A DNA stretch of 64,000 nt. Source: an uncultured delta proteobacterium (GTDB lineage Bacteria; Desulfobacterota; Binatia; HRBIN30; BPIQ01). Within the stretch, counting starts at the first letter, position 1. Each line of letters begins with the position of its first letter. The DNA is taken from positions 78,242-142,241 of the forward strand of contig CAVXGR010000021.1 in NCBI GenBank assembly GCA_963761335.1. Direction: 5' to 3'. The notes below the pieces were generated by a model, which did not search any database, was not told where the DNA came from, and was given only the letters and a program-made list of their open reading frames with translations. A program made the translations under genes and the position numbers. Positions 1,468 through 45,205 of this stretch are shown piece by piece.

Positions 1468-1893
1468 ATGCCTCTCGTCTCTGCCGGCTGCGTCGTCACC
1501 CGAGCCGGCCCGCAAGGTACCGAGGTGCTGCTGGTGCACGCCCGGCGGGCATCGTTCCGGCGCCCGCTCTTCGGCATTCCCAAGGGGCTTGTCGAGGCGG
1601 GGGAGACCCTCGAGGAGGCGGCCCGGCGCGAGACCGAGGAGGAGACCGGCCTACGGGTCCATATCCTCGGTCCTCTCGGCAGCATCAGGCAGAAGTCCGG
1701 CAAGATCGTGCACGCCTTTGGCGCCGTGGTGGCGCCCGAAAGTGAAGGCAGAATCGACAAAAAGGGCCGCTGTGAGGCCGCCGACGGGGAGAACGACGTC
1801 TGCCGTTTCTACCCCATCGAGAAGGCGCGTCCCCTGATGATCCCCGCTCAGCGCGAGCTCCTCGACCGGCTGGCCGAGATCCCCGCCCATTGA
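1468..1893 (+). CDS. NUDIX hydrolase
   Basis: ATG at 1468 lies in frame inside the spurious 397..1893 ORF. The product shows the Nudix box region GIPKGLVEAGETLEEAARRETEEETGL. About 141 aa. Confidence 0.75.
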   Translation: MPLVSAGCVVTRAGPQGTEVLLVHARRASFRRPLFGIPKGLVEAGETLEEAARRETEEETGLRVHILGPLGSIRQKSGKIVHAFGAVVAPESEGRIDKKGRCEAADGENDVCRFYPIEKARPLMIPAQRELLDRLAEIPAH

Positions 1894-1946
1894 CCTCGCC
1901 TCGCGCTCGCCGTAGCCTCCGGGAACCCAACCCCAAGGAGATTTAC

Positions 1947-2933
1947 ATGCGAACCATCGCCTTCACCGTCATAGCCGTTCTCGGCTCTGCCCTGATGGCT
2001 GTTGCCGCCGACACCACGGTGGCCACAGTCGCCGGGCACACCATCACCCAATCGGAGCTCGAGCAGCACGTGAAGCCCAAGCTGATCGAGATCGACAACG
2101 AGCGCTACGAGACGCTCAGCCAGGGTCTCGACGAGATGGTCACCGACATCCTGCTCGAGCAGGAGGCCAAGGCGCGCGGCATCAGCAAGGACGATCTGGT
2201 GGAGAAGGAGGTGGAGTCGAAGATCCCCGAGCCCACCGACGCCGAGGTGCAGAAGCTCTACGACGACAACAAGGATCAGCTCAACGGCGCTTCGCTCGAT
2301 TCGGTGAAGCCGCGCATCGTCCAGTACCTGAAGCAGCAGAAGGGAGCCGCGGTGGCCCAGACCTACATCGCCGGCCTCAAGAAGAAGTACAAGACGACGG
2401 TCCTCCTGCATCCGCCCGTTGTCGAGGTCGGCACCGGCCCGCGGCCGCCTCGCGGCGGCGCCAACGCGGCGGTCACCATCGTCACCTTCTCGGACTACGA
2501 GTGCCCCTTCTGCAAGCGCGCCGAGTCGACCGTGGACCAGGTGATGAAGGCGTACGGGGACAAGGTCCGCCTCTACTTCCGCGATTATCCGCTGCCCTTC
2601 CACCAGCACGCGCGACCGGCCGCCGAGGCCGCGGAGTGCGCCAATGCCCAGGGGAAGTTCTGGGACTACCACGACAAGCTGATGGCGAGTAAGGACCTGT
2701 CGCCGGAGAACCTGAAGAAGATGGCCGCCGACACCGGTATGGACGCCAAGAAGTTCGACGAGTGCGTCGCCAAGAACCCGTACAAGGACATCATCGAGAA
2801 GGACATCGCCGACGGCGCCACCGCCGGAGTCAACGGCACGCCCGCCTTCTTCATCAACGGTCGCCTGATCTCCGGCGCCCAGCCGTTCGAGAAGTTCAAG
2901 GAGATCATCGACGAGGAGCTGGCGCGGAAATAG
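1947..2933 (+). CDS. Periplasmic DsbA-like thiol:disulfide oxidoreductase with an N-terminal SurA-like chaperone region
   Basis: AAGGAG RBS at 1935-1940 and a signal peptide. CPFC thioredoxin-fold active site within FSDYECPFC. The C-terminal FFINGR motif is typical of the DsbA/FrnE family. Confidence 0.8.
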   Translation: MRTIAFTVIAVLGSALMAVAADTTVATVAGHTITQSELEQHVKPKLIEIDNERYETLSQGLDEMVTDILLEQEAKARGISKDDLVEKEVESKIPEPTDAEVQKLYDDNKDQLNGASLDSVKPRIVQYLKQQKGAAVAQTYIAGLKKKYKTTVLLHPPVVEVGTGPRPPRGGANAAVTIVTFSDYECPFCKRAESTVDQVMKAYGDKVRLYFRDYPLPFHQHARPAAEAAECANAQGKFWDYHDKLMASKDLSPENLKKMAADTGMDAKKFDECVAKNPYKDIIEKDIADGATAGVNGTPAFFINGRLISGAQPFEKFKEIIDEELARK

Positions 2934-2936
2934 GGA

Positions 2937-5129
2937 TTGGTGTCCGGCCGAGGATCAAAGAGACGGGGCGCGGCGCTGCTGCTCGGCGGCGCCGCCTTCC
3001 TGGTTGCCTCGGCGGCGTCGGCCATCGTCGTTCCCGACGATTACTCGACCATCCAGGCGGCCCTGAACGCCGCCGTTCCGGGTGACACCATCGAGGTGAA
3101 GGACACCCCCGGGCCCTATGCGGAGAAGATCGCCTTCCCGAGCAGCGGGGCCCCGGGGGCCTACATCACCCTGCAGGCGTTCGCCGGCCATTCGCCGGTG
3201 CTCGACGGCACCGGGGTGCCCGGCGAGAACATGGTGCTCATCGACTCGAAGAGCTACGTCAAGATCGTCGGCTTCGAGATTCGCAACAACCTCGGCGTCC
3301 ACGACGGCTCCGGGATCCGCGTCCTCGGCTCCGGCTCGCACATCGAGCTTCGCGACAACCGCATTCACGACATCCGCGGCAGCAATGCCATGGGGATCAC
3401 CGTCTACGGCACCGAGGCGACCTCGATCTCGGATCTGATCATCGACGGCAACCAGATCTACGACTGCGAGCCGGCGCGCAGCGAGGCGCTGACGCTCAAC
3501 GGCAATGTCGAGACGTTCGAGGTGACCAACAACGTCGTCCGAGACGTGAACAACATCGGCATCGATTTCATCGGCGGCGAGACCGACATCCAGCCGGACA
3601 CCAGCAAGGTGGCGCGCAACGGCGTGTGTCGCGGCAACCAGGTCTACCGCGCCAACTCGATCTACGGCGGTGGTTATGCCGGCGGCATCTACGTCGACGG
3701 CGGCAAGGACATCGTCATCGAGCGCAACATCGTCGCCGAGAGCGATCTGGGGCTCGAGGTCGGCGCCGAGAACTCCGGCATCGTCAGCAGCGGCGTCATC
3801 GTCCGCGACAACATCCTCTACCACAACCAGAAGGCGGGCCTCGCCTTCGGCGGCTACGCGGCGTCCGTCGGGCGGGTGAAGAGCTGCTCGTTCCTCAACA
3901 ACACGCTCTATCAGAACGACACGCTGAACGTCGGGCTGGGGGAGCTGTGGGTCCAGTACGCCGAGGACAACGTCGTCCGCAACAATGTCTTCTACGCCGG
4001 CGCGCAGAACCTGCTCATCTACTCGGAGTCCGGCAACGTCAACAACGCCCTCGACTACAATCTCTGGTTCGCGGACGCCGGCGCCGGCAGCGCCGTCTTC
4101 GTCTGGAAGAACACGGGGTACAGCGGCTTCGCCTCTTACCTCGCCGGATCCGGCGAGGACGCCCACTCGGTGTTTGCCGATCCGCAGCTCGTCGACGCCG
4201 GCGCCGCCGACTTCCACCTGTCGTCGACCTCGCCGGCGGTGAACGCCGGCGATCCGGGCTTCGCCGCGGCGATGGGGGAGACGGACATCGACGGCGCGCC
4301 GCGGGTCAGCGGCGGCCGCGTCGATGCCGGCGCCGACGAGGTGACCTGCGGCGACGGCGTGATCGACGCCGGCGAGACCTGCGACGATGGCAATCTGGTC
4401 GATTGCGACGGCTGTGACAGCAACTGCACCGATTCGAGCCTGTGCGGCAACGGCATCGTCTGCGGCGCCGAGCAGTGCGACGACGGCAACACCGTGAATG
4501 GAGACTGCTGCTCCGCGAGCTGCGGCTTCGAGGCGGGCGGTGCGCCGTGCGACGACGGCGATCTCTGCACGCACGGCGACAGCTGCGACGGCGCCGGGCA
4601 GTGCGCCGGTACCGCCACTCCCGCGCCGGTGTGCGACGCCCCGACGCTTGCGGGCAAGTCGCTCCTGCTGCTGCGCGATCGCGACCCGGACAAGCGCGAT
4701 CTGCTGGTGTGGAGATGGACGAAGGGGCCGCTGGTGGACATCGGAGACTTCGGCGACCCGACGGCGAGCACCGCCTACGCCCTCTGCATCTACGACGGCT
4801 CCGGCGACCCGCAGCCGCGGCTGCGCGCCGCCATCGATGCCGGCGGGCAGTGCGCCGGAAAGCCGTGCTGGCGCCCGACGAAGAAGGGGTACCGCTATCG
4901 CGACAAGAATCTCCTCGCCGGCGGTGTGAAGACGATCAACCTGATATCCGGCGATCCCGGTCGCAGCCGCATCATCGTCCGGGGCAAGGGGGACAACCTC
5001 GACATGCCGTCCCTCGGCCTCACGCCACCGGTCACCGCGCAGCTCGAGAACGACGCTGGAGCCTGCTGGGGGGCGACGTACTCTTCGCCGATCGCCAACG
5101 ACCCGACGTTGCTCAAGGCCAGAGAGTGA
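2937..5129 (+). CDS. Secreted right-handed parallel beta-helix (pectin-lyase fold) protein with three Myxococcus-type cysteine-rich repeats and the shared C-terminal module
   Basis: TTG start and a signal peptide (AAFLVASAASA). Beta-helix repeat region (IEVKDTPGPYAEKIAF..., NNVVRDVNNIGIDF). Three CG(D/N)G-x6-CDDGN repeats at roughly aa 470-550. The C-terminal ~175 aa resemble the C-termini of the ORFs at 38275 and 41867. Confidence 0.75.
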   Translation: MVSGRGSKRRGAALLLGGAAFLVASAASAIVVPDDYSTIQAALNAAVPGDTIEVKDTPGPYAEKIAFPSSGAPGAYITLQAFAGHSPVLDGTGVPGENMVLIDSKSYVKIVGFEIRNNLGVHDGSGIRVLGSGSHIELRDNRIHDIRGSNAMGITVYGTEATSISDLIIDGNQIYDCEPARSEALTLNGNVETFEVTNNVVRDVNNIGIDFIGGETDIQPDTSKVARNGVCRGNQVYRANSIYGGGYAGGIYVDGGKDIVIERNIVAESDLGLEVGAENSGIVSSGVIVRDNILYHNQKAGLAFGGYAASVGRVKSCSFLNNTLYQNDTLNVGLGELWVQYAEDNVVRNNVFYAGAQNLLIYSESGNVNNALDYNLWFADAGAGSAVFVWKNTGYSGFASYLAGSGEDAHSVFADPQLVDAGAADFHLSSTSPAVNAGDPGFAAAMGETDIDGAPRVSGGRVDAGADEVTCGDGVIDAGETCDDGNLVDCDGCDSNCTDSSLCGNGIVCGAEQCDDGNTVNGDCCSASCGFEAGGAPCDDGDLCTHGDSCDGAGQCAGTATPAPVCDAPTLAGKSLLLLRDRDPDKRDLLVWRWTKGPLVDIGDFGDPTASTAYALCIYDGSGDPQPRLRAAIDAGGQCAGKPCWRPTKKGYRYRDKNLLAGGVKTINLISGDPGRSRIIVRGKGDNLDMPSLGLTPPVTAQLENDAGACWGATYSSPIANDPTLLKARE

Positions 5130-5764: not shown

Positions 5765-5867
5765 CCTTGGTATCCTTTCAGCTGCCGGGCAACCGCGCCG
5801 ACGCGGTCGCGTTCCGGGAAAGGCTCTGGCGCTCTCTCTGCTATCTGCCTTTCCGTAGCGCCACAAG

Positions 5868-7252: not shown

Positions 7253-7303
7253 TTTCTGCCCACCACCGCGCCGCGGCGACCGGAGTCGGGACCTGCCCCT
7301 CGC

Positions 7304-7981: not shown

Positions 7982-8039
7982 CGTCGATCTACCTGAGCGT
8001 ATCTACGACAAATGCCGGGAAGAATGAAGCGCTCTCCAT

Positions 8040-8633: not shown

Positions 8634-8690
8634 TTCGCATTCTCCTCTCGGTTGGTTTGCTGGACTCTGGTGGTTCGACTGCCAGATTGC

Positions 8691-9491
8691 TCAATCGGCG
8701 CGGCCGGCGATTGCCTCGACCTGCGGCCAGACAGCTTCTCCGTTCTGACGCAGCATGGCCACCGCCGCTTCGGGAGCCCACTTCGAGACGGCGATCTCGA
8801 ATGCCGGACGGGCCTGTACCCGCTCATACCAGCGGGCCAGGGAGGGGCGCGCATCGGCGGCAAGGAGCGGCGTCATCGCCAGATGATCCAGGCGAAGCAC
8901 GTACGGGAGCACGCAGGCATCCGCGAGGCCGAAGGAGCTGCCCGAGAGCCAATCGCGCTGCGCCAGCGTTACCTCCGCCCGGTCGAGGAGGTCGATCATT
9001 TTTCTCAGGGCGCCGGCAAACTCGGGCGCCTCGACCCCGTGCTCGATGACGCTGCGACGCGCCTCGCGTTCCGCCGGATCGGGAATCGAGCTGATGTTGG
9101 CCTCCAGCATCTCCTTGGGCAGCTGCAGCAGGAGGTTGCGCGGGCCGATGGCAAAGGTCACCACGGCGGTGGCGGCGTGGGCTTTTTCGTCGACGCGCTT
9201 CGTCCACAGGCGGACCTCGTGCCGCCCGCGGGCGTCGCTCGGCCGCATTGGTATCGCGGGGAAAGCTTCGTCGAGGTACTCGTTGATGAGGGTCGACTCG
9301 ATCAGCACGGCGCCGTCGTGCACCAGCGTCGGCACGACGTGGTTCGGATTCAGCTTTACGTACTCCGAATCGTGCTGGCCCCCGGTCATGAGATCGACCT
9401 CGTGGGACACGAAGTCGAGCCCCTTCTCCGCCAACACCAGGCGGACCTTCTGGGAGCAAGTCGAGAATGCATAGTGGTAGAGCTCGAGCAT
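8691..9491 (-). CDS. Glutathione S-transferase
   Basis: ATG at 9491 with an AAGGAG RBS. N-terminal GST thioredoxin-like domain (MLELYHYAFSTCSQKVRLVLAEKGL...VVPTLVHDG...ESTLINEYL) followed by a C-terminal helical domain. Confidence 0.85.
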   Translation of the reverse strand: MLELYHYAFSTCSQKVRLVLAEKGLDFVSHEVDLMTGGQHDSEYVKLNPNHVVPTLVHDGAVLIESTLINEYLDEAFPAIPMRPSDARGRHEVRLWTKRVDEKAHAATAVVTFAIGPRNLLLQLPKEMLEANISSIPDPAEREARRSVIEHGVEAPEFAGALRKMIDLLDRAEVTLAQRDWLSGSSFGLADACVLPYVLRLDHLAMTPLLAADARPSLARWYERVQARPAFEIAVSKWAPEAAVAMLRQNGEAVWPQVEAIAGRAD

Positions 9492-9523
9492 GATGGGTGA
9501 TCTCCTTTCCGTGTGTGATTGAG

Positions 9524-11251: not shown

Positions 11252-11295
11252 GGCTATCCTCCTGGCCTGCAGCGGCCGTCGCGGCCGCGAGTTTC

Positions 11296-11346
11296 GTTAT
11301 TCAACTGACAAGTAACGGCTTGACGTTCGCTTGTCAAGTGAATAAC
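11296..11346. promoter_or_regulatory. Candidate TetR operator palindrome in the divergent intergenic region
   Basis: GTTATTCAACTGACAAG-N17-CTTGTCAAGTGAATAAC, 14 of 17 arm positions complementary. It sits between the monooxygenase operon start (11251) and the TetR start (11357). Confidence 0.4.
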
Positions 11347-11356
11347 ATAAATTTCC

Positions 11357-11911
11357 ATGAACAGCCGTGACCAACAGCGGGAGCAGACCCGAGAGCGCAT
11401 CATCGAGGCAGCGGCGCGGGCCTTCGCGGAGCACGGCTTTCGCGCCGCCAGCACGCGCGACATCGCCACCCGCGCCGGGGCGAATCAGGGGCTCATCACC
11501 TATCACTTCCGCAGCAAGGAGGAGCTGTGGAAGGCGGCTGCGGGCCGCGTCTTCGGGATTCTCCAGGGCAGCTTCGAGCGCTCGACCGACGGCGGCGCGG
11601 CGAAGGACCCGCGCGAGCCGGCGCGCGCGGCGATCCGCCAGTACGTGCGCTTCGCGGCGGCGCACCCGGAGCTATTCCGACTGATGGTCGACGAGGGCAA
11701 GAACAAGGAAGCGCGGATGCGCTGGCTCGTCGATACCCATTTGAAGCCACTCTACGCGTCCTTCGAGCGGCTGGTGCGCAGGTACAATCCGCAGATGGAC
11801 GGCGCCCTGATTCCGCACGCCTACTACGCCCTGGCCGGCGCCGGGTCTCTGATCTTCGCTGTGGCCCCCGAGTGCCGCCGTCTCACCGGCGTCGACCCGA
11901 GCCCGCGCTAG
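11357..11911 (+). CDS. TetR/AcrR family transcriptional regulator
   Basis: N-terminal HTH (RERIIEAAARAFAEHGFRAASTRDIATRAGANQGLITYHF). Transcribed divergently from the monooxygenase-GST-AhpD-NnrU string. Confidence 0.85.
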   Translation: MNSRDQQREQTRERIIEAAARAFAEHGFRAASTRDIATRAGANQGLITYHFRSKEELWKAAAGRVFGILQGSFERSTDGGAAKDPREPARAAIRQYVRFAAAHPELFRLMVDEGKNKEARMRWLVDTHLKPLYASFERLVRRYNPQMDGALIPHAYYALAGAGSLIFAVAPECRRLTGVDPSPR

Positions 11912-11961
11912 TAGCCGTCGAGGTGCACGCCGAGTTCGTCGCTCGACTCCTCGTCCCGTAG

Positions 11962-12173
11962 ACCAACCCGCCAACCCGCTCACCATCCGCAGTGCTCCTC
12001 GGCGCGCTCGGCGATGCCGAGCAGCGCCAGACCATCGAGCTTGCCTACTTTGGGGGCCTGAGTCATACGGAGATAGCGCTGAAGCTTGGACAGCCCATTG
12101 GGAACGGTGAAGACGCGCATCCGCACCGCGATGATGCACCTGCGAGCCGCACTCGGCCGCTTGGAAGCGTCGC
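11962..12173 (+). pseudogene. ECF (sigma-70 family) sigma factor remnant: region 4 only, 5'-truncated and frameshifted
   Basis: Frame 1 encodes ...RQTIELAYFGGLSHTEIALKLGQPIG and frame 2 continues ...LGTVKTRIRTAMMHLRAAL, which is a classic sigma region 4.2 HTH. No region 2 is present upstream, since the TetR stop lies at 11911. Confidence 0.5.
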
Positions 12174-12308
12174 CGGCGGCGGTCGGGAAGGGGCGGGGCC
12201 TGGCGGACCACGACCCGCCGGCCGACCACCGCGAACGCGCCTCCTCGAGCGAACGGCCCGCGGCCCGATCACTGGGTCGTCGAGGGGGGAGAGGACATCG
12301 ACCTCGCC

Positions 12309-12863
12309 ATGAAGCTGGCGTCGCTCTGCTGCACCGGCGTATCGGTGCGGCGCACCGCGCCGGAGGCGACCGCCACCTCGGAGGTGGCGACCTTGGACAT
12401 ATCCGGAGAATGTCACTGGCCCGACGGCATCGGTCTGCTCGCCACTCTCGCGGTCACGCCGCGAGAGGGCTCTCCCTCGACGCGGCGAGTGCTCGACTTC
12501 GGGCCCTCTGCATACGCGGTTCCCGGTGCAATCGTTCGCGATCTGCACATCGGCGCCCTGCGATCTCTGCGAATCACTTGGGAGGGCGTCCTCGTTCCTC
12601 TGCTTCCGGGAGCGCAGGCGATTGCCTTGGTCGTGCAGCGAGGACACGGCAAGCTGCGCATTGGCAGCAGTGAAGTGGACGCCCACGACGCAGGCAATTC
12701 GACCTTTCGAGGCGAGATCGAGGCCGCCATCGACGGGCCGGTGCCGATCTCCGTCGAGGTCGAGACCTCGAGCACCGCCCTGCCGGTGCCCCGTCTCTAT
12801 TGGCGCCGGGGAGACTCTCCGCCGTCTCCGGTGCCGCCGTGGGCACTGCGCCCATCACCGTGA
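12309..12863 (+). CDS. Hypothetical protein (possibly an anti-sigma remnant); weak call
   Basis: 184-aa ORF downstream of the sigma remnant. Not low-complexity, but I recognise no family. Confidence 0.25.
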
Positions 12864-17527: not shown

Positions 17528-20257
<2,730 letters not shown>

Positions 20258-20473
20258 CGCCGCCCCTCCTCGATGTTGTGGTGTCCCGCTATATGCCCCA
20301 CTATATCCTGTGGTGTCAAGGGATTTCTTCATGAGCCCGATTGTAGGCGAAGAGTGGGCGAAATTCGAGACTCTCGGGCGCGGTTGTCGGGCCCGGGCGC
20401 GGGTGATAGGCCGGCGCCGATGGCGAGACCAAAGGGACAGCTGTCGCGCGCCGGCGACACTCTGGGAGGGGTG

Positions 20474-20914
20474 ATGCGGCGCATCGATCCGGACCGCCGC
20501 ATCGAGGTCTATCGCCTGTGGAGCTTCTGGGATGAGGTGGTCGGCGAGGGCATCGCGCGCCGCGCGCAGCCGCAGCGGATGCGCGATCGCGTTCTCGTCG
20601 TCGCCGTCTCCAGCCACACCTGGATGCAGGAGCTGCAGTTCTTGAAGGAGAACATTCGCGAGCGCCTCAACCAGCGCCTCGGCGCACCCCTGATCGAGGA
20701 TCTGCGTCTGGTCTCGGGCAGTGTCAGGCAGCCGCCGGCGCGCAGCGAGGCGGCGGCGCCGCCGCCGGTCGCTGTCCCCGAGCTGCCGAAGACGGGATCC
20801 GCGGAGCTCGACGCGGCGCTGGCGCGGGTGGCGCACGCCTGCGCTCGCCGCCAGGCGGAGAGCCTGGCGGCGCGCAAGCCGAAGCCGAGAAAAGGGCGCC
20901 GGCGGTCCTCCTGA
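20474..20914 (+). CDS. DUF721 (DciA-like) protein
   Basis: GGGAGGG RBS. MRRIDPDRRIEVYRLWSFWDEVVGEGIARRAQPQRMRDRVLVVAVSSHTWMQELQF matches the DUF721/DciA pattern. Confidence 0.7.
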   Translation: MRRIDPDRRIEVYRLWSFWDEVVGEGIARRAQPQRMRDRVLVVAVSSHTWMQELQFLKENIRERLNQRLGAPLIEDLRLVSGSVRQPPARSEAAAPPPVAVPELPKTGSAELDAALARVAHACARRQAESLAARKPKPRKGRRRSS

Positions 20915-20931
20915 GCGGCGCCGCCGCTCTC

Positions 20932-21837
20932 TCACTCCGGAAGCAGGGTTGCCAGGCCGCTCTGCAGGTCGTCGGGTCCGAGAGCGCGGGCTCCGGCGGC
21001 AACCAGGCGCGCGTTCTGCGCGCCCCACGAGACCACGGTCTTGCCGCGCGCCAGCATGTCGAGGCCGAGCTGCTCCATGTGGCCGCCGGAGCGCGCCTCG
21101 ACGGCGATCACCAGGTCGGCGAGGGCCGCGATCAGCGCGTCGCGGCGGGCGCCGTTGGCGGGCGCCGCGTGGTTGTTCAGGCGAAATGGCGAGAGCACCA
21201 GGGTGCGGGTGCGGTCGAGGCGCAGGTGACCCGAGGTGAGGCCGAAGATGTCGCGCTCCGTCTCGTCGCCGAGAGCCGCGAACAGGCCGCGGTCGAGGAT
21301 GATGACGCGCGGTGTCTGTGCGGCGCGCGCCGACGCTGCGGCAATGCGATGGCCGAGCTTCATGGCGCCGCTCACCACGGCGAAGCCGCCGAGCGCCGCT
21401 GCCTCGACGATCTGGCGGGTGGCCACCATGGCCCCGCTCGAGGGCAGACGGGAGTTGAGCACGGCCGCCGCCGGCGACTGCAGCAGCGCCGTGTCGCCGA
21501 GGGCGAAGACCACCGGCGGCGGCGCCTTGAGGTAGTGCTCCCACACGGCCGGATAGCCGTGCGCGCCAAGCAGGAGCGGGTGGCCGCCGTGCTCGATGAA
21601 GCGCTCGGCGAGCATACCGCAGCGGCGCTCGTACTGGTCGCGAAACAGCGTCAGGCAGGCGACCGCCTCCTCCGAGAGGCGATAGGGATCGCGGTAGACG
21701 GCCTCCGGCAGGCGGAAGAACTCCTCGAGCGCCCGGCCCTGGGCGCGGTTGATGGTGAGAACGCGTGCCAGCCCCCGCGGCCCGACGCGCGGCAGCTCGG
21801 AGAGCAGAACACAATGGTAAGCGGAGATCTTGTCCAT
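20932..21837 (-). CDS. dprA: DNA-processing protein DprA (SMF family)
   Basis: Start at MDKISAYH (21837). Rossmann-like DprA core (PPVVFALGDTALLQSPAAAVLNSRLPSSGAMVATRQIVEAAALGGFAVVSGAMKLGHRIAA) and a C-terminal winged-helix domain. Confidence 0.8.
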   Translation of the reverse strand: MDKISAYHCVLLSELPRVGPRGLARVLTINRAQGRALEEFFRLPEAVYRDPYRLSEEAVACLTLFRDQYERRCGMLAERFIEHGGHPLLLGAHGYPAVWEHYLKAPPPVVFALGDTALLQSPAAAVLNSRLPSSGAMVATRQIVEAAALGGFAVVSGAMKLGHRIAAASARAAQTPRVIILDRGLFAALGDETERDIFGLTSGHLRLDRTRTLVLSPFRLNNHAAPANGARRDALIAALADLVIAVEARSGGHMEQLGLDMLARGKTVVSWGAQNARLVAAGARALGPDDLQSGLATLLPE

Positions 21838-23872: not shown

Positions 23873-25963
23873 CTACTGGGGGGTGCAGACGGTGATCGGC
23901 GCGCTGGTAACGCCCGTAGGGCCTTGGTCGGTGGTCACCTGGAGTTCCACCGGTGCGGTGCAGGTGAACGGCCAGCGCACCACCAGCATCGTCGGCGTGA
24001 CGGCGACGACGTCGGCGGGCGCGCCATCGATGCGCACGCAGTTGCCGCGCAGCGGCACACAGCGATTGCGGAGGGTGACGTTGGCGCAGTCGGTCTCGCT
24101 GAAGTGGCCGTCGATGGCGTTGAAGCCGGAGCCGAAGATGCGCAGGAGCCCTCCCTGCTCGCCGCGGGTGGGCTCCACCCGGTCGAGTATCGGCGGCTGC
24201 AGCGAGCGGTGCGCCTGCGCCGGTACGACAGTGGTGAAGGCGCCGTGATCGGACAGGTCGTGCGCCAAGATGGCGTCGGTGTTGCAGCTCGTGCCGGTGC
24301 CGCAGTGCTCCCACTGGTTGTTGATGGCGCTCATCTGCAGACCGGTGGCATTGCGGAAGTTGTCGCCGCCGACGTTGTTCTGGGTGAAGGCGTTGTTGCC
24401 AGCGCTTCCCAGCGGTCCACCGCCGAAGTCGCCCACCGAGGTGTTGGTGATGATGGCGCCGTCGACGCCGTTACAGACGCTGGTGCTGCCCTCGACCACG
24501 GCAGTGGCGCCGTCTCCGCCGTCGTTGGCGATGCGGATGCCGGAGCTGGCGTTGACCGCGAAGTAGGAGTCCTCGACGCTCGCCAGCGAGCTGGCGCGTA
24601 CCGAGATGCCGTTGGCGCCGTTGAAGCGCACGATGTTTCCCGCCGACTCCAGGTCCGAGAAGGCGCCGCTGCTGGTGTCGTCGGCGGGGCTGACGGAGAG
24701 ACCGTTCTGCGCGGTGCTGCCGCGGTTGCGCTCGATCAGGTTGTCCGCTGCCTGCACGTGGCCGCCGAGCGTGCTCTGGATACCGCCGTTCTGGTTGTCG
24801 TGGATCCAGCTGCCCTCGATGCGGGCGTAGGCGCCGGTGGTGACCTTGACGCCCTTGTCGGCGGCGCCCGAGATGTCGCAGTCGCGGACGATGTTCACCG
24901 TGTCGTCGAACCCCTTGCCGGCGCCGCCGTCGATGCCGATGCCGTCGGCGCTGGTGGCGTTCTGGACGATGCAGTGCTCGACCACGTTGCCGTCGGCCGC
25001 CGCCCCGGTGATGCTGAGCACGTCGCGGTCGCCGCTGCCGGCGTTCCGCAGCTGCATGCCGACGATGTGGTTGCGGGCGCCGGTGATCGACAGGGCCGGG
25101 TTGCCGAGCATGGCGCCGCCGGCATCGATGATGCGATTGCCGGGAAGGCCGTCCTCGTCGAAGCCGTCGATGGTGACCTCGTCGGAGTCGATGGTCGGCA
25201 GCGCGAAGGCGAGCTCGATCGCGATGGGCGACCCCGAGGGAAAGGCGGCCGGCGCGAACTGGATGAGCAGGGGCTTGGCGGCGCCGGCGGCGTCCTGCAG
25301 GGCCTTGCGCAGGGTGCCGTCGCCGGTGTTGGCCCTCTTTTGCACGGTGATGACCGTGGGAAACACGGTGAAGGCGAGGCGCGACGGGTCGGCGGCGGCG
25401 AGCAGCAGCGAGCGCCGGTACTGCTTCTGGCCGGTGTCGGGAGAGGTGACCTCGATGCTGTGTCGCCACGGTCCGGGAGCCAGGCCGGCGATCGGGCCGC
25501 AGCTGAAGCTGCCGCTGCCAGAGCAGCTCTGATGGTAGCTGGTTTCGCCGGCGCCGCCGGCGCAGCTTCCGCCGAGCGCCTGACCGCTGAGCACCACATT
25601 GACGCTGGCGGCGCCGCTGCGGTCGTCGATGTCGACCATCAGATCGGCGGTGGCGCTCGGGCAGGCCCGCGGGGTGCCCGTGGCGGTGGCCAGGGGCGTG
25701 GCGGTCGGCGTGGGCGTCGAGGTCGGCGTGCCGCTCTCGGTGGGTGTCCCCGTCGGTGTCGCCGTGCCGCCGCTGGCCACCGCGAGGGCGAGGGCGGGCA
25801 GGTCGGCCGCCGAGATGCGGCCATCGCCGTTGGGGTCGCAATCGGCAGCGCCGCTGCCGAAGATTGCCGGGACGATCTGCTCGACGGGCGGAGCTTGCCC
25901 CGGGCTGCAGGGTATGGGGCTCGCCGCGCCGGCGAGCCCCCAGGTGAGGGCGACCGCGGCCAT
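23873..25963 (-). CDS. Secreted protein with a dockerin-like Ca-binding loop, Thr/Pro linker, PbH1 parallel beta-helix repeats and a C-terminal IPT/TIG-like domain
   Basis: Start at MAAVALTW (25963) with a signal peptide. DCDPNGDGRISAADL motif. TPTGTPTESGTPTSTPTPTATP linker. Repeated NxxGxxxxGIxI-type beta-helix units. The opposite-strand 796-aa ORF is low-complexity antisense. Confidence 0.7.
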   Translation of the reverse strand: MAAVALTWGLAGAASPIPCSPGQAPPVEQIVPAIFGSGAADCDPNGDGRISAADLPALALAVASGGTATPTGTPTESGTPTSTPTPTATPLATATGTPRACPSATADLMVDIDDRSGAASVNVVLSGQALGGSCAGGAGETSYHQSCSGSGSFSCGPIAGLAPGPWRHSIEVTSPDTGQKQYRRSLLLAAADPSRLAFTVFPTVITVQKRANTGDGTLRKALQDAAGAAKPLLIQFAPAAFPSGSPIAIELAFALPTIDSDEVTIDGFDEDGLPGNRIIDAGGAMLGNPALSITGARNHIVGMQLRNAGSGDRDVLSITGAAADGNVVEHCIVQNATSADGIGIDGGAGKGFDDTVNIVRDCDISGAADKGVKVTTGAYARIEGSWIHDNQNGGIQSTLGGHVQAADNLIERNRGSTAQNGLSVSPADDTSSGAFSDLESAGNIVRFNGANGISVRASSLASVEDSYFAVNASSGIRIANDGGDGATAVVEGSTSVCNGVDGAIITNTSVGDFGGGPLGSAGNNAFTQNNVGGDNFRNATGLQMSAINNQWEHCGTGTSCNTDAILAHDLSDHGAFTTVVPAQAHRSLQPPILDRVEPTRGEQGGLLRIFGSGFNAIDGHFSETDCANVTLRNRCVPLRGNCVRIDGAPADVVAVTPTMLVVRWPFTCTAPVELQVTTDQGPTGVTSAPITVCTPQ

Positions 25964-26196
25964 CGACCAGAGCGCGCTGCGGGTGCAGCGCGACTCCTTC
26001 CTTTGCTGGCGTGGTCCTCGCATCTGGGCCGCCCATCAAACCATCGGACGCCGAGGCGTTCAATCGCGGCGTCGCCGTGCGTCGGCCGAAGTTGCGCCGT
26101 CCCGATCATTCCTGCAAGCTGCGTTGCCGAGAGCGCGACGCCGATGCCCGACTGCCACAGCCTCGAATCGCCGGTGCCCGCCGTCGCCGTCACCTG

Positions 26197-38274: not shown

Positions 38275-41200
38275 ATGCGGCTAACGACCACCTGCGCGTA
38301 CCTGGGCCTGCTGTTGGCCTTGACTGCCGGCGAGAGCGGGGCAGTCGGATCTTTCGTCACCTTCGAGAGCGGCCAGGTGCGGCCGCTGGCGATGTCGCCG
38401 GACGGCAACACGCTGTTCGCTGTCAACACTCCGGACGATCGGCTGGAGACCTTCTCCGTCGATTCTTTTGGCCTGACCCATACGGGGTCGGTGCCGGTCG
38501 GCATGGAGCCGGTCGCCGTCGCGGCGCGCACCAATACCGAGGTGTGGGTGGTCAACCACCTCTCGGACAGCATCAGCATCGTCGACATGAGCCTGGTTCC
38601 GCCGCGGGTGATTCGCACTCTGCTGGTCGGCGACGAGCCGCGCGACATCGTCTTCGCCGGTGCCGCCCACGACCGCGCCTTCATCACCACGGCGCATCGC
38701 GGCCAGAACGATCCCATCGATCCGCAGCTCACCACGCCGGGAGTGGGGCGCGCCGACGTCTGGGTGTTCGACGCCATCAATCTGGGGCTGTCCCTGGGCG
38801 GCGACCCGCTGACCATCATCACGCTCTTCGCCGACACGCCTCGTGCCCTGGCCGTCACCCCCGACGGCTCCACGGTGTACGCGGCCTCCTTTCTCTCCGG
38901 GAACGAAACGACGGCGGTCTCCGAAGGCGCGGTGTGTGACACCAGCGACGCCAACGTCAACAATGAGGTGGTGGAGCTCGCTTGCAGCATCCAGGGCGTC
39001 ACCATGCCCGGCGGGCTGCCGCTGCCGCACCACAACTCCGCCGGCGACCGGGCCCCGGAGGTCGGGCTGATCGTCAAGTACGACGGCAGCCACTGGGTGG
39101 ATCAGCTGGGCCGCAGCTGGGACAACGCCGTCAAGTTCTCGCTGCCCGACGAAGACGTCTTCTCCATCAATGCCAACGCCACCCCTCCAGCGCAGACCGG
39201 CTTCTTCACCCATGTCGGCACCATGCTCTTCAACATGGCGGTGAACCCGGTGAACGGAAAGGTGTACGTGACCAACGGCGAATCGCGCAACGAGGTGCGC
39301 TTCGAGGGGCCGGGCATCACCAGCACCACGGTGCAGGGTCACCTGGCCGAGTACCGGATCACGGTGCTCGACGGAGCGAACGTGCTGCCGCGCCACCTGA
39401 ACAAGCAGATCGACTACAACGTTCGCCCGGCGCCGCTGGGGGTGAAGGACGACAGCCTGGCGACACCGCTGCAGATGGCGATCACCAGCGACGGGCAGAC
39501 GCTCTACGTCGCCGCCTTCGGCTCGAGCAAGATCGGCATCTTCAACACGGCGCAGCTGGAGAACGACACCTTCACGCCGAGCGCCGCCAACCACATCCCG
39601 GTGAGCGGTGGCGGCCCGAGCGGCATCGTCCTCGACGAGGCGCGGCAGAGGCTCTACGTCCTTACCCGTTTCGACAACGGCATCGCGGTCATCGACACCG
39701 CCACGCACAACGAGATCGACCACCTGTCGCTCTTCAATCCGGAGCCCCCGAGCGTCGTCAACGGCCGTCCGTTCCTCTACGACGCCTACTTCACCTCCAG
39801 CAACGGCGAGGCCTCCTGCTCCAGCTGTCACGTCTTCGGCGACTTCGACAACCTCGCCTGGGACCTCGGCAATCCCGACGACGTGATGATCCCCAACCCG
39901 CTGACCAAGAAGCTGCAGCAGGTGGCGCAGCTCCAGGGGACGAACGTCGATTTCGACAACTTTCATCCGATGAAGGGCCCTATGACCACGCAGACGCTGC
40001 GCGGGCTCAAGAACCACGGGACCATGCACTGGCGCGGTGACCGCGTGAACCAGAACGGCAACGTCTACGACTCCGACGTCGCTTTCCGCAACTTTCGCGT
40101 CGCCTTCCCCGGCCTGGTCGGCCGCGACTCGCAGATTCCCGAGTCCGACATGCAGGCCTTCTCCGACTTCGCCCTGCAGATCATTCAGCCGCCCAATCCC
40201 ATCCGCGCGCTCGACAACTCGTTGACCGCCGACCAGCAGGCGGGCAAGAACTTCATGACCGGCAGCCGACGCGCCGATGGCATCTTCGTCGGCGGCGGCA
40301 CCGGCTTCAACTGCGTGGGCTGCCACGTGCTCGACGCGTCCAACGGATTCTTCGGCACCAACGGCGACCAGAGCTTCGAGAACGAGACACAGGTTTTCAA
40401 GGTCGCGCAGCTGCGCAACATGTACCAGAAGGTGGGCATGTTCGGCATGCCCGGCGTCGACTTCTTCAGCAACCATTCGGGGGAGAACAACTTCATGGGG
40501 CCGCAGATCCGCGGCTTCGGTTTTCTCCACGACGGCAGCGTCGACACCGTCTTCCGCTTTCTCCACGCCAGCGTCTTCGACGACGGCGGGACCTTCAACC
40601 CGGTCGGCTTCAACGGCGGTGACACGCAGCGGCGGCAGGTCGAGCAGTTCATCCTCGCATTCGATTCCGACCTGGCGCCGATCGTCGGCCAGCAGGTGAC
40701 CCTGACCAGCACCAACGCGGCCGCCGTCTCGGCGCGCATCAGTCTCTTGGAGCAGCGCGCCGGCGCCGCCTTCGTCCTCAAGGGGATGCCGGGTGCGACC
40801 GAGTGCGACCTGGTGGTGAAGGGCGTCGTGGCCGGCGAGATGCGCGGCTGGGTGCGCACCGCCGCCGGAACCTTCCAGAGCGACCGCGCCGCCGAGTCTC
40901 CGCTGACCGACGCGCAGCTGCGGGCGCTGGCGGCGACGCCCGGAGAGGATCTGACCTTCACCGCGGTGCCCCCGGGCTCGGGCGTGCGCACCGGCATTGA
41001 TCGCGACGAGGACGGTTATCTCGACCGCGACGAGATCGACGCCGGCTCTGATCCCGCCGATGCGGCCAGTATCCCGGGCTCGGTCCCCTCACCGACCCCG
41101 ACGGCGACGACCACGGCAACCGCCACCGCGTCGACGACGATGACCTCGACACCGGTGTTGACGCCGACGATCACCAGCACGCCGATGGATACCGGAACAC

Positions 41201-41844
41201 CCACCATCACCTCGACGCCGGGGGACACGCCGACCGTGACTCCGCCGCTGCCGACCTCGACGGAGACGGCGAGCCCGACGATCACCGAAACCGGGACGGT
41301 GACATCGACGCCGACGGTGACGCCGACGTCGACGCCTCTCGGCGGCTGCAGCAGCGGTTCGTCGATGCAGCGGGCGGTGCTCAAGGTCCGCAGGGACCGC
41401 GACCCGGCTGGTGACGAGAGGCTCGTTCTCCAGGGCGAGGCCACCTTCTCGACTCCGCTCGATCCGCATGCCGACGGGCTCAGCTTTGCGGTCGCCGGCG
41501 CCAGCGGTGATCTCCTCTACAGCCGTACCGTGCCGGCGGGCTTCTGGTCGGTGAACGGCCGCGGTACTCGCTGGCAGTACAGGGAGCAGACCGGCACTCT
41601 GGCCGGCGGCATCGTCAAGGTGATCGTCATCGACAAGAGCAACCGAGCGCCGGGCCTCTACAAGTTCAAGATCGTCGGTCGCGACAGCGACTTCCAGATC
41701 GACCCGGGGCAGCTGCCGGTTCATTTCGAGGTCAGGCTGGGAGCCGCGGCGAGCCAGTGTGCCGCGCAGGCGTTCAACCCGGATGGGGCGGCGCGCCCGG
41801 CCTGTCGCATCTCGAGAAATCTCAACACGGTCACCTGCCGGTGA
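38275..41844 (+). CDS. Large secreted protein A: N-terminal beta-propeller-like region, di-haem cytochrome c peroxidase/MauG-like domain (CSSCH, CVGCH), DxDxDG Ca-binding-like motif, Thr/Pro linker, shared C-terminal module
   Basis: 1189 aa with a signal peptide. CxxCH codons at 39817-39831 and 40312-40326. CCP-like blocks HWRGDR, FKVAQLRN and GFLHDGSVDTV. The opposite-strand 761-aa ORF is antisense junk. Confidence 0.8.
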   Translation: MRLTTTCAYLGLLLALTAGESGAVGSFVTFESGQVRPLAMSPDGNTLFAVNTPDDRLETFSVDSFGLTHTGSVPVGMEPVAVAARTNTEVWVVNHLSDSISIVDMSLVPPRVIRTLLVGDEPRDIVFAGAAHDRAFITTAHRGQNDPIDPQLTTPGVGRADVWVFDAINLGLSLGGDPLTIITLFADTPRALAVTPDGSTVYAASFLSGNETTAVSEGAVCDTSDANVNNEVVELACSIQGVTMPGGLPLPHHNSAGDRAPEVGLIVKYDGSHWVDQLGRSWDNAVKFSLPDEDVFSINANATPPAQTGFFTHVGTMLFNMAVNPVNGKVYVTNGESRNEVRFEGPGITSTTVQGHLAEYRITVLDGANVLPRHLNKQIDYNVRPAPLGVKDDSLATPLQMAITSDGQTLYVAAFGSSKIGIFNTAQLENDTFTPSAANHIPVSGGGPSGIVLDEARQRLYVLTRFDNGIAVIDTATHNEIDHLSLFNPEPPSVVNGRPFLYDAYFTSSNGEASCSSCHVFGDFDNLAWDLGNPDDVMIPNPLTKKLQQVAQLQGTNVDFDNFHPMKGPMTTQTLRGLKNHGTMHWRGDRVNQNGNVYDSDVAFRNFRVAFPGLVGRDSQIPESDMQAFSDFALQIIQPPNPIRALDNSLTADQQAGKNFMTGSRRADGIFVGGGTGFNCVGCHVLDASNGFFGTNGDQSFENETQVFKVAQLRNMYQKVGMFGMPGVDFFSNHSGENNFMGPQIRGFGFLHDGSVDTVFRFLHASVFDDGGTFNPVGFNGGDTQRRQVEQFILAFDSDLAPIVGQQVTLTSTNAAAVSARISLLEQRAGAAFVLKGMPGATECDLVVKGVVAGEMRGWVRTAAGTFQSDRAAESPLTDAQLRALAATPGEDLTFTAVPPGSGVRTGIDRDEDGYLDRDEIDAGSDPADAASIPGSVPSPTPTATTTATATASTTMTSTPVLTPTITSTPMDTGTPTITSTPGDTPTVTPPLPTSTETASPTITETGTVTSTPTVTPTSTPLGGCSSGSSMQRAVLKVRRDRDPAGDERLVLQGEATFSTPLDPHADGLSFAVAGASGDLLYSRTVPAGFWSVNGRGTRWQYREQTGTLAGGIVKVIVIDKSNRAPGLYKFKIVGRDSDFQIDPGQLPVHFEVRLGAAASQCAAQAFNPDGAARPACRISRNLNTVTCR

Positions 41845-41866: not shown

Positions 41867-44800
41867 ATGCGCGTTTTCCCTTGGCGGAAGCTTCTGCTGG
41901 CGCTGACGATACTCGGGCTGGGCGCGGCGATTCCCGCCGGTGCGCAGTCGTTCGTCACCTTCGAGAGCGGCCAGGTGCGGCCGCTGGCCCTCTCCCCGAA
42001 CGGGAGCCAGCTGCTCGCCGTCGATACACCCGACAACACCCTGGAGACCTTCGACGTCGCCCCCGGAGGGGTGACGCACGCCGGCTCGATCCCGGTCGGG
42101 CTCGAGCCGGTCGCCGTGGCCTTCCGCGGCGATACCGAGGCGTGGGTGGTGAATCACCTCTCCGACAGCGTCAGCATCGTCGACCTGTCGCTGACCCCGC
42201 CGCGGGTCGTGCGCACCCTGCTGGTCGGCGACGAGCCGCGCGACATCGTCTTTGCCGGGCCGGGCGGCAACCGCGCCTTCATCACCACGGCGCATCGCGG
42301 ACAGAACAGCCCCATCGATCCGCAGCTGACGACCGAGGGTGTCGGTCGGGCCGATGTCTGGGTCTTCGACGCCACGGCGCTCGGCTCCTCACTCGGCGGC
42401 GACCCGCTCACCATCGTCACCCTCTTCGGCGACACGCCGCGGGCGCTGACGGTGAGCCCCGACGGCAACACGGTGTACGCCGCCATCTTCGAATCCGGAA
42501 ACCAGACGACCTCCGTCTCCGAAGGCGCCGTGTGCAACACCAGCGCGACGCGCATCAATAACGGCACCGTCCAGCCGGCGTGCAGCATCTTCGGCGTGAC
42601 CATGCCGGGAGGCCTGCCGCTGCCGCACAAGAACATCGAGGGCATTGCCGCGCCGGAGACCGGCCTGATCGTCAAGTACGACCCGACGCTCAGCCGCTGG
42701 AACGACAACATCGGCCGCAACTGGAACAACGCCGTCGACTTCTCGCTGCCCGACGACGACGTGTTCACCATCGACGCCAGCGCCGCGACGCCGGTGGAGA
42801 CGGGCGCCTTTCCCCACGTCGGCACCATCCTGTTCAACATGATCGCCAACCCGGTCACCGGCAACGTCTACGTCACCAACACCGACGCCCGCAACGAGGT
42901 GCGCTTCGAGGGCACCGGCATCCTCGGCGGCAGCAGCGTCCGCGGTCATCTGCACGAGGCGCGGGTCACCGTGCTCGACATCGCCCACGGCGGCGTGGTG
43001 GTGCCCCGGCATCTCAACAAGCAAATCAACTACGCCGTGGTGCCCAGCCCCCCCGGGGTGAAGGAGCTGAGCCTGGCGACACCGATGGGGCTGGCCATCG
43101 ACAGCGCCGGCGCCACGCTGTACGTGGCCGCCTTCGGCTCCAGCAAGATCGGCGTCTACGACGTCTCCAGCCTGGAGGATGACAGCTTCGATCCGGCGAC
43201 CGTGCCGCAGATCTCGGTCAGCGGTGGCGGGCCGTCCGGTCTCATCCTGGACGAGGCCAACGGCCGACTGTACGCGCTGACCCGCTTCAACGACGCGGTC
43301 GCGGTGATCGACACCGGCAGCAAGCTCGAGATCGACAGCCTGCCGCTGCACAACCCGGAGCCGCCCTCGGTGGTGCAGGGGCGACCGTTCCTCTACGACG
43401 CCGAGCTCACCTCGAGCAACGGCGAGGCCTCCTGCGGCGGCTGCCACGTGTTCGGCGACTTCGACAGCCTGGCCTGGGACCTCGGCGACCCCGACAGCAA
43501 CGTCATCACCAACGTCAACCCCTTTCGGGTCGCGCAGCCGCCCGCGGGGTTGCCGGTCATCCAGTCGTTCCCCGATCACCATCCGATGAAGGGGCCGATG
43601 ACGACACAGAGCCTGCGCGGCCTCGCCAACGCCGGCCCGATGCACTGGCGGGGGGACCGCTCCGGCGGCAACGATCCGGGCGGAGATCCGCTGGACGAGG
43701 ACGCCGCCTTCAAGCACTTCAACGTCGCCTTTGCCGGCCTGCTGGGGCGCAGCGGTCCGCTGACCGCCGACGAGATGCAGAAGTTCACCGACTTCGCCCT
43801 GCAGATCACCTACCCGCCCAACCCGATTCGGGCTCTCGACAACTCACTTACCCCGGACGAGCAGGCGGGTCGCGACTTCTTCATGCACCCCCCTTCGCAG
43901 CCGTCGGACGTGTTCCAACCCTGCCATGGCTGCCACCAGCTCGATCCGGCGCAGGGCTTCTTCGGCACCGACGGGTTCTCCAGCTTCGAGAACGAGCCGC
44001 AGCAGCTCAAGATCGCGCATCTGCGCAACGCCTACCAGAAGGTCGGCATGTTCGGCATGCCCGATGTGGCATTCTTCAATCAGAGGACGACCGGGTTTCT
44101 CGGACCCCAGGTCCGCGGCTTCGGATTCCTGCACGACGGCAGCGTCGATACCGTCTTTCGCTTCCTCAACGCCGTCGTCTTCAACCAGCACCAGTTCGTC
44201 ATCAATCTCGGCGGCTTTCCCGACGGTCCGAGCGGCGGCGATCCGTCGGCGGGGGACCCGCTGCGGCGCCAGGTGGAGTCGTTCATCCTCGCCTTCGACA
44301 GCAACCTCAAGCCGATCGTCGGACAGCAGATCACGTTGACCGACACCAACGCGGCCACGGTAGGAGCGCGCATCGACCTGCTCTTGACGGGCGCCGCGGC
44401 CGGCGACTGCGACGTCGCCGTAAAGGGGGTCGTCAACGGCGCGCAGCGCGGCTGGTACCGCCTCGCCGACGGCAGCTTCCAGAGCGATCGCGCTGCGGAG
44501 GCGCCGATCACCGACACGCAGCTGCGCCTGCTGGCGGCCACCCCGGGCCAGGACCTCACCTACACCGCGGTTCCGGTGGGCTCCGGCCAGCGCATCGGCG
44601 TGAATCGCGACGGCGACTGTGCCTTCGATGGCGACGAGATCGACAGCGGTACCAATCCGGCGAGCGGCGTCGCGGTGATCATGTCGAAGCCGAAGCTGCG
44701 GGTGGCCCGCGACCTGGCACCGGCCGGAGACGAGAGGTTCGCCCTCAGAGGCAATCTGGAGCTGTGCAACGCCTCGGTCACGGTCGATCCGCTCACCGAC

Positions 44801-45205
44801 GGCTTCAGCTTCACCGTCTCCGACAGCAGCGGCACGCCGATCTTCACGCGCGTCATCCCGCCGGGCGCGGCGCCGACTTCGCACGATCCGGGCTGGAAGG
44901 TGAATGGGAAGGGCACGCGTTGGGTCTTCAAGGACAAGACCGGCCTCGTCGCCGGCGGCGTCGTCCGCGTCGTCGTCATCGACAAGACGGCCCACCAGCC
45001 CGGACTCTACAAGATCAAGGTGGTCGGCAAGCGGGGCAACTTCCAGGTCGACCCGAACGATCTGCCGCTGCGCGCCACCGCTGTCGTCGACACCGTCGAT
45101 CCCTGCCTGAGCAAGCTCTGCGGCCAGGTCGCCTTCAACGCCGATGGCCAGCCGCGCCCGGCGTGCGCCGCCAAGAACGGAGGCAAGACGATCCTCTGCC
45201 GGTGA
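41867..45205 (+). CDS. Large secreted protein B, a paralogue of A: beta-propeller-like region, di-haem CCP/MauG-like domain (CGGCH, CHGCH), shared C-terminal module, no Thr/Pro linker
   Basis: 1112 aa. Starts 22 bp after A's stop, with an AGGACATAGGATAG-type weak RBS. CxxCH codons at 43433-43447 and 43922-43936. Colinear with A along its whole length. Confidence 0.8.
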   Translation: MRVFPWRKLLLALTILGLGAAIPAGAQSFVTFESGQVRPLALSPNGSQLLAVDTPDNTLETFDVAPGGVTHAGSIPVGLEPVAVAFRGDTEAWVVNHLSDSVSIVDLSLTPPRVVRTLLVGDEPRDIVFAGPGGNRAFITTAHRGQNSPIDPQLTTEGVGRADVWVFDATALGSSLGGDPLTIVTLFGDTPRALTVSPDGNTVYAAIFESGNQTTSVSEGAVCNTSATRINNGTVQPACSIFGVTMPGGLPLPHKNIEGIAAPETGLIVKYDPTLSRWNDNIGRNWNNAVDFSLPDDDVFTIDASAATPVETGAFPHVGTILFNMIANPVTGNVYVTNTDARNEVRFEGTGILGGSSVRGHLHEARVTVLDIAHGGVVVPRHLNKQINYAVVPSPPGVKELSLATPMGLAIDSAGATLYVAAFGSSKIGVYDVSSLEDDSFDPATVPQISVSGGGPSGLILDEANGRLYALTRFNDAVAVIDTGSKLEIDSLPLHNPEPPSVVQGRPFLYDAELTSSNGEASCGGCHVFGDFDSLAWDLGDPDSNVITNVNPFRVAQPPAGLPVIQSFPDHHPMKGPMTTQSLRGLANAGPMHWRGDRSGGNDPGGDPLDEDAAFKHFNVAFAGLLGRSGPLTADEMQKFTDFALQITYPPNPIRALDNSLTPDEQAGRDFFMHPPSQPSDVFQPCHGCHQLDPAQGFFGTDGFSSFENEPQQLKIAHLRNAYQKVGMFGMPDVAFFNQRTTGFLGPQVRGFGFLHDGSVDTVFRFLNAVVFNQHQFVINLGGFPDGPSGGDPSAGDPLRRQVESFILAFDSNLKPIVGQQITLTDTNAATVGARIDLLLTGAAAGDCDVAVKGVVNGAQRGWYRLADGSFQSDRAAEAPITDTQLRLLAATPGQDLTYTAVPVGSGQRIGVNRDGDCAFDGDEIDSGTNPASGVAVIMSKPKLRVARDLAPAGDERFALRGNLELCNASVTVDPLTDGFSFTVSDSSGTPIFTRVIPPGAAPTSHDPGWKVNGKGTRWVFKDKTGLVAGGVVRVVVIDKTAHQPGLYKIKVVGKRGNFQVDPNDLPLRATAVVDTVDPCLSKLCGQVAFNADGQPRPACAAKNGGKTILCR

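Follow-up and report, generated by a model that had tools for sequence, protein, structure and literature searches.

A strictly C-terminal, basic beta-sandwich superfamily on exported proteins of Binatia-like bacteria: a candidate surface-attachment module

Several kinds of element are known to be carried, often C-terminally, by secreted bacterial proteins. The C-terminal domains (CTDs) of the type IX secretion system (T9SS; Por_Secre_tail, type A/B) are folded all-beta domains of about 70–100 residues. Type I dockerins are Ca-binding, EF-hand-like helical pairs of about 60–70 residues, whereas carbohydrate-binding modules (CBMs) and pre-peptidase C-terminal (PPC) domains are non-catalytic beta-sandwiches. 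MYXO-CTERM-type tags are short tripartite signals made of a motif, a transmembrane (TM) helix and a basic cluster (PMC11980579). Here we describe a further C-terminal module, carried by three proteins (A, B and C) encoded in a stretch of 64,000 nucleotides, hereafter the window, from an uncultured delta proteobacterium assigned to Binatia (Desulfobacterota; HRBIN30; BPIQ01). The window covers positions 78,242 to 142,241 of the forward strand of contig CAVXGR010000021.1 (assembly GCA_963761335.1).

An earlier note, made from the letters of this DNA and its open reading frames (ORFs), had pointed to a tail common to the three proteins and had left open whether it is a sorting signal or a binding domain. 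Our results lean towards binding or anchoring, while the strict C-terminal position of the module and its exchange for other tails in orthologues keep sorting alive. The reading we prefer, at a probability of about 40%, is that of a non-covalent, non-catalytic attachment module which would hold to a negatively charged polymer in the envelope or matrix of the producing cell.

Two subfamilies of one C-terminal module

Proteins A (38275-41844, + strand, 1189 aa) and B (41867-45205, + strand, 1112 aa) are encoded in tandem, B following A after an intergenic gap of 22 nt. Protein C (2937-5129, + strand, 730 aa) is encoded separately, and all three have signal-peptide-like N-termini. The three ORFs and the location of the tails at their extreme C-termini are as the earlier note described them. 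In A, the module occupies 41347..41841 (residues 1025-1189), running from a conserved opening Cys to the terminal ...TCR ahead of the stop codon at 41842-41844; the start proposed earlier, 41347, is exactly the codon of this Cys. In B, the module occupies 44651..45202 (residues 929-1112, terminus ...ILCR), a range that includes the earlier proposed start of 44684. Both modules match the profile hidden Markov model (HMM) up to the last residue of the protein (1.8e-55 for A and 9.3e-63 for B), and we refer to them as A/B-type. The module of C (4617..5126, residues 561-730) has its own Cys pattern, is devoid of a terminal C-[KR], and is a distant homologue that we call C-type. HMM searches of the six-frame ORFs of the window identified no further copies beyond A, B and C.

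The relationship between A and B differs in kind from that between either of them and C. A and B are 63% identical across residues 26-939 (BLASTP) and are tandem paralogues along their whole length, their C-termini aligning at 41% identity over 174 columns (E 4e-40). Because they are full-length paralogues, their shared tail represents one architecture and not an independent occurrence. Pairwise comparison of the C tail is not significant against the A tail (BLASTP E 0.13) and weak against the B tail (E 1e-4, 27% identity). At the profile level, a three-sequence HMM retrieved C as its top non-self match among the 792 six-frame ORFs of the window (E 0.0018). The C module also has relatives of its own (P0002-P0016), with E values as low as 5.8e-41.

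Alignment of a 36-sequence A/B-type profile with a 16-sequence C-type profile using hhalign gave a probability of 97.2% in local mode (E 3.9e-11, 142 columns) and 98.1% in global mode (E 5.9e-13), the aligned length ranging from 142 to 177 columns across modes. Reversed or column-shuffled templates stayed at a probability of 1.3% or below and at E values of 0.04 or above, which rules out chance similarity as the source of the likeness. Furthermore, one natural protein (locus L026, 59-2065) is matched by both the A/B-type and the C-type HMMs. The similarity spans the whole domain, and independent models of the two types show the same fold, which confirms that the window carries two subfamilies of one superfamily. 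The claim that three different proteins share a module therefore holds as homology and is overstated as a count, since A and B are paralogues and the C tail belongs to another subfamily; several of the motif equivalences listed earlier for C hold at the profile level only.

The earlier suggestion of a modular beta-sandwich agrees with the models obtained from AlphaFold2 (AF2). The A module, modelled from the 36-sequence alignment, is an autonomous all-beta domain with a mean predicted local distance difference test score (pLDDT) of 94.8 and a predicted template modelling score (pTM) of 0.90. The C module, modelled from the 16-sequence alignment, is likewise all-beta (pLDDT 91.0, pTM 0.88). The two models have a common order of 12-13 elements, with a short helix following the second strand. 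A Foldseek search of the PDB returned no match at E <=1e-3, and the best hit of a profile search against PDB sequences had an E value of 0.078. As modelled, the module is a beta-sandwich with no specific solved relative in the PDB.

The superfamily is also absent from curated domain collections. In A, B and C, the final 160-185 residues stay unmatched in Pfam and NCBIfam, even when isolated tails are searched at E 10 (Pfam) or E 1 (NCBIfam), and other A/B-type members, C-type members and two further subfamilies introduced below have no Pfam match. Mapping to a known domain such as LamG or a fibronectin-type domain, one of the outcomes that the earlier note had named as refuting it, did not occur in either library. 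Curated CBM, lectin, PKD, FN3 and LamG families gave no match at the Pfam gathering score, the best being PKD_6 at 12.9 bits against a cutoff of 25.

Family size, position and passengers

When 1.84 billion representatives were scanned exhaustively with HMMER and a profile of A, B and P0001, 1,708 A/B-type proteins emerged at E <=1e-3 (clusters at 50% identity), 1,111 of them at E <=1e-10. The family surfaced only by this exhaustive search; a word-indexed search with the B tail found one relative. In the source databases, members are named 'hypothetical protein' only.

The module is strictly C-terminal. Its end coincides with the last residue of the protein in 141 of the 150 best hits and lies 1-16 residues before it in the remaining nine, and a protein never carries two copies. 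In the genomic loci described below (1.4 Mb, four subfamilies), 60 of 61 subfamily hits end 0-4 residues before the stop, the sole exception being a weak C-type match that ends 14 residues before it. The terminal position proposed from the three window proteins is thereby extended to the family and to its genomic loci. The usual terminus of the A/B-type is ...x-C-[K/R].

Conservation in the 36-sequence alignment centres on structure. Most members have the opening Cys, while C1162, C1177 and C1188 (A numbering) are invariant or nearly so; W1091 is invariant, and conservation extends to a P-x-G-D-[DE] motif and to several positions occupied by Gly or Pro. With Gly, Pro, Trp and Cys making up most of the conserved positions, the pattern is that of a scaffold rather than a catalytic set. 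As judged from sequence, the four cysteines are compatible with two predicted disulphides.

The single copy at the extreme C-terminus and the conserved terminal ...C-[KR] would suit a folded secretion or sorting signal with logic like that of the T9SS CTD: a dedicated outer-membrane machinery of Binatia would recognise the module and export the passenger, perhaps cutting off or altering the module in the process. Such a signal would also account for the dozens of unrelated passengers. We nevertheless consider it unlikely. Neither Por_Secre_tail nor any other sorting-signal HMM matches the module, which is twice the size of a T9SS CTD, and to our knowledge the T9SS is confined to Bacteroidota and their relatives. 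Further evidence on both sides of this explanation is given with the orthologous loci and the stand-alone copies.

The passengers are very unlike one another, in line with the earlier note. The 64 full-length members match 52 Pfam families in total, and 42 of the 64 have a signal-peptide-like N-terminus in a crude test. Disintegrin-like Cys-rich repeats occur in 26 members; TSP3 repeats, DUF4215 and LamG_3 are also found, as are propellers of the DUF5122, NHL, BNR and sortilin types. Among the enzymes and binding domains are alpha/beta-hydrolases (including lipase- and PETase-like ones), an M4 protease, CBM96, an F5/8-type C domain and B_lectin. In A and many relatives, the module follows a Thr/Pro linker. 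In A the linker is read directly from the sequence as 92 residues between passenger and module (41071..41346, + strand, residues 933-1024); it is missing from B, is the main difference between the two proteins, and is skipped by their BLASTP alignment.

In the passenger of A (38275..41070, + strand), a signal peptide is followed by a beta-propeller and then by a di-haem peroxidase-like region whose two CxxCH haem-c motifs read CSSCH and CVGCH in the translation. The passenger of B (41867..44650, + strand) is its tandem paralogue. Both match Pfam Lactonase and NCBIfam beta_rpt_yvtn, and the match to the MbnH di-haem family is weak. About 500 propeller-haem relatives are found in Binatia and Myxococcota genomes, where tandem pairs or triplets are frequent (for example at loci L007, L008, L012 and L051). 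The passenger of C (2937..4616, + strand) is composed of a signal peptide, a right-handed beta-helix, a choice-of-anchor Q domain (NCBIfam, 30.1 bits against a cutoff of 25) and Cys-rich acidic repeats (DUF4215 / myxo_disulf_rpt).

The hydrolases, CBM96, lectins and F5/8-type C domains among the passengers, together with Thr/Pro linkers typical of enzyme-CBM junctions, raise the possibility that the module works like a CBM or adhesin and targets its passenger to anionic material in the environment, such as acidic polysaccharides, humic or mineral surfaces, or other cells. This explanation is somewhat unlikely in our estimate, although it is the most credible of the alternatives considered here. 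The module matches no Pfam CBM or lectin family, and many passengers, such as the propeller/di-haem and Cys-rich repeat proteins, are not polymer-acting enzymes. CBMs, moreover, can sit elsewhere than at the very end of a protein and are often repeated, in contrast to the module, which is always single and last.

Tail exchange, charge and the function of the module

Orthologues of A and B were collected by a genome scan with the full-length A+B alignment, a design that samples orthologous loci (<=20 kb) rather than whole genomes. The 80 loci obtained come mostly from Candidatus Binatia metagenome-assembled genomes (MAGs) or MAGs labelled Deltaproteobacteria/Myxococcales; cultured Myxococcota (Sorangium, Cystobacter and Archangium) are also among them, and the closest loci are 65-66% identical, which points to a Binatia-like source for the window. 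Orthologous passengers align to about residue 917-935 of A, and the sequence beyond this junction varies. A/B-type modules follow the junction at ten loci besides the window, and C-type modules at three. Two further tail types were found: g3 (about 190 residues, about 22 loci, terminus ...WCADAPAK...PSGAFL[DE]) and g4 (about 135 residues, ten loci, terminus ...GGQCFRGNATKVKP), both of them without a Pfam or NCBIfam model. Orthologues from Sorangium and other cultured myxobacteria have no tail past the junction.

Comparison by hhalign relates g3 and g4 to the module: A/B-type with g3 at 95%, A/B-type with g4 at 97.5% and C-type with g3 at 96%, reversed and shuffled controls being negative. Four of the six subfamily pairings are thus related at 95-98%, g4 being linked through the A/B-type only. 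Subfamilies are combined within genomes, A/B-type with C-type in the window and at L026, and g3 with C-type at L022. The g3 tails (L006-L013, L015, L020-L022, L037, L060) often terminate in a conserved ...GSPSGAFL[DE], preceded by a Pro-rich stretch that contains a conserved Cys; this end peptide could be a separate terminal signal.

At other loci, the module is interchanged with other anchors. A type I dockerin stands at the junction at L030 (32.4 bits) and L047 (42.6 bits, cutoff 22.9 in both cases), and further orthologues have EF-hand-pair or dockerin-like tails. The tails at L055 and L061 consist of a Cys, then a hydrophobic helix, then an Arg cluster; no NCBIfam model confirms them as a named sorting tag. 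The dockerin tail at L030 (gene 7593-11102, + strand; last 75 residues) ends in ...CEGGTLSCR, and G-x-T-L-x-C-R also closes the A/B-type module. This terminal peptide could be a remnant of module exchange or a common terminal motif.

Substitution of the module by dockerins and membrane-tag-like tails suggests that its target is the producer's own surface or matrix. These tails are self-attachment devices, a point that speaks against targeting to external material. The Cys-TM-Arg tails, which resemble MYXO-CTERM-type tags, can also be taken in favour of a sorting signal, as can the presence of several bearers in one genome region (three in the window, three in 12.7 kb of L085); the occurrence of divergent subfamilies together in single genomes is unfavourable to it.

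Opposite charges mark the module and its passengers. The 128 A/B-type modules analysed have a median isoelectric point (pI) of 9.57 and a median net charge of +7, 98% of them being positive, whereas the parts upstream are acidic (median pI 4.15). All four subfamilies are basic, with median pI values of 9.0-9.8 against about 4.7-4.9 for their passengers.

A basic tail complementing an acidic passenger, at the C-terminal position, might indicate an intramolecular folding aid or C-terminal propeptide, comparable to the PPC domains of secreted proteases; it would be removed once it had neutralised or chaperoned the passenger during export. We regard this explanation as highly improbable: the passengers are too diverse for a common folding need, many orthologues (for example in Sorangium) work without a tail, long flexible linkers separate module and passenger, and proteins made only of the module exist. 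One of the latter, P0182 (223 aa), consists of a signal peptide and the module; the gene is complete on two independent contigs and lies mid-contig on the longer. P0079 (201 aa) has the same layout as read from its sequence alone. P0170 proved to be a frameshift fragment of a beta-helix protein.

The gene of P0182 argues against a purely transient export tag, and signal-peptide-plus-module-only proteins would leave a sorting signal with no cargo. For attachment to external material, stand-alone copies and the basic charge are favourable points. At L085, P0182 is encoded directly upstream of a 1091-residue module bearer, with a third bearer within 12.7 kb. These three A/B-type genes (P0182, the 1091-residue bearer and a beta-helix bearer; 3925-12729) stand beside a gene for a 780-residue PDZ + thioredoxin/AhpC protein. 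No recurrent partner or 'machinery' gene was found next to module genes in the contexts examined, which again disfavours a dedicated sorting system.

Taken together, the basic charge across divergent subfamilies, the scaffold-like conservation, the linkers and the module-only proteins suit attachment to an anionic polymer. The module itself is a stable beta-sandwich of about 165-185 residues; it has four conserved cysteines, is strongly positive in net charge, and forms the very C-terminus of proteins that Binatia-like bacteria export through Sec and that are mostly acidic. Under the attachment reading, the module would fold oxidatively after export, and its cationic surface would then bind a polyanion of the producer's envelope or matrix, for example lipopolysaccharide (LPS), capsule or exopolysaccharide (EPS). 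The passenger, whether an enzyme, a propeller-haem protein, a lectin or a Cys-rich adhesin-like stalk, would in this way be held at the cell surface, often via a Thr/Pro linker. Homology, family size, terminal position, fold, charge, passenger diversity and the exchange with other anchors are results of the analysis, whereas export past the periplasm, disulphide formation, a polyanionic ligand and surface retention are inferred.

Several points weigh against attachment. Its ligand, surface location and outer-membrane secretion are matters that we infer, and the basic charge might instead serve contact with the acidic passenger or with a translocon. The basicity of the C-type is the least consistent, with negative net charges (-1 to -5) in some members. 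As a rule, binding modules are not restricted to the last residue of a protein, and a conserved ...C-[KR]-COOH end would be more expected of a recognition signal. A bolder reading is that all four basic sandwiches are cargo tags of an undescribed sorting or surface-attachment pathway specific to Binatia and allied uncultured lineages. Here a dedicated partner in the outer membrane would recognise the module as a folded, disulphide-locked CTD with a free ...C-[K/R] terminus, in a pathway that would parallel the T9SS CTD and PorV functionally while being evolutionarily unrelated to them. We consider this quite unlikely, a little more so than a sorting signal of the general kind discussed above.

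The neighbourhood of C contains a gene of possible relevance to its folding. A gene encoding a fusion of SurA_N with a DsbA-like thioredoxin (1890..2933, + strand; Pfam Thioredoxin_4 4.1e-33, DSBA 4.6e-23) stops 3 nt upstream of the start of C, and the two are probably co-transcribed as one operon. Judging from this adjacency alone, it is plausible that its product is a disulphide-forming helper for C; the arrangement is consistent with an oxidatively folded, Cys-rich C product. Directly downstream of C on the opposite strand, a 687-aa ORF (5189-7252, - strand) has coding-like GC content at third codon positions (GC3) and no Pfam match, and its hydrophobic segments suggest a membrane protein.

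None of the four module types is present in a second beta-helix protein encoded elsewhere in the window (23873-26023, - strand, 716 aa), which combines an N-terminal dockerin/EF-hand-like motif (DCDPNGDGRISAADL) with a Thr/Pro linker and a C-terminus that by eye resembles the IPT/TIG type. The ORF of a class II (B12-dependent) ribonucleotide reductase (17528-21814, - strand, 1428 aa) has about 570 residues before its first recognised domain, reflecting either an over-called start or an uncharacterised N-terminal extension.

Comparison with known systems

Like the module, the T9SS CTD is folded and all-beta and forms the very end of many Sec-exported proteins that are otherwise unrelated, with one copy per protein and with many bearers and more than one subtype per genome. 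The module differs from it in size (about 165-185 residues), conserved cysteines, strong basic charge and the existence of cargo-less genes. Membership is rejected, as no CTD profile of Pfam or NCBIfam yields a match, be it with whole proteins (E 0.1) or with modules on their own (E 1-10), even though the module does sit at the extreme C-terminus of Sec-exported cargo. We know of no T9SS in the Binatia-like lineage.

Type I dockerins are likewise C-terminal and non-catalytic, serve attachment (the role that we propose for the module), and occur in a variety of secreted proteins, frequently behind a Thr/Pro linker; at L030 and L047 they take the exact position of the module in orthologues of A and B. 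The folds differ, the one being a helical pair and the other a beta-sandwich. The module is not a type I dockerin: Pfam PF00404 (Dockerin_1) does not match it, and the same model detects the true dockerins at L030 and L047.

MYXO-CTERM and PEP-CTERM tags are C-terminal on surface proteins, occur in related deltaproteobacterial-type lineages and, as in the module, have a conserved Cys near the terminus. The L055 and L061 tails that stand in place of the module resemble MYXO-CTERM-type tags as defined previously (PMC11980579). The module itself, as modelled, is a globular beta domain devoid of a TM helix, an architecture incompatible with membership. CBMs and PPC domains come close in general design, being beta-sandwiches that are non-catalytic and linker-joined to secreted enzymes; membership in the CBM, PKD, FN3 or LamG families is rejected on the HMM results.

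Our literature search on sorting or secretion in Binatia/Binatota found nothing relevant, and we know of no account of how these bacteria display or release extracellular proteins. Binatia are abundant uncultured bacteria of soil and sediment. In them, the module appears to mark a large part of the exported proteome, including enzymes, haem proteins and adhesin-like repeat proteins. A defined superfamily would help to predict which proteins of Binatia are surface-bound or secreted and would offer a candidate anchoring or sorting principle, and a curated domain model would improve the annotation of thousands of metagenomic proteins. Set beside the systems above, the module is a familiar kind of element, a C-terminal non-catalytic beta-sandwich on secreted proteins, represented by a large superfamily that is new to Pfam, NCBIfam and the PDB and concentrated in an uncultured lineage.
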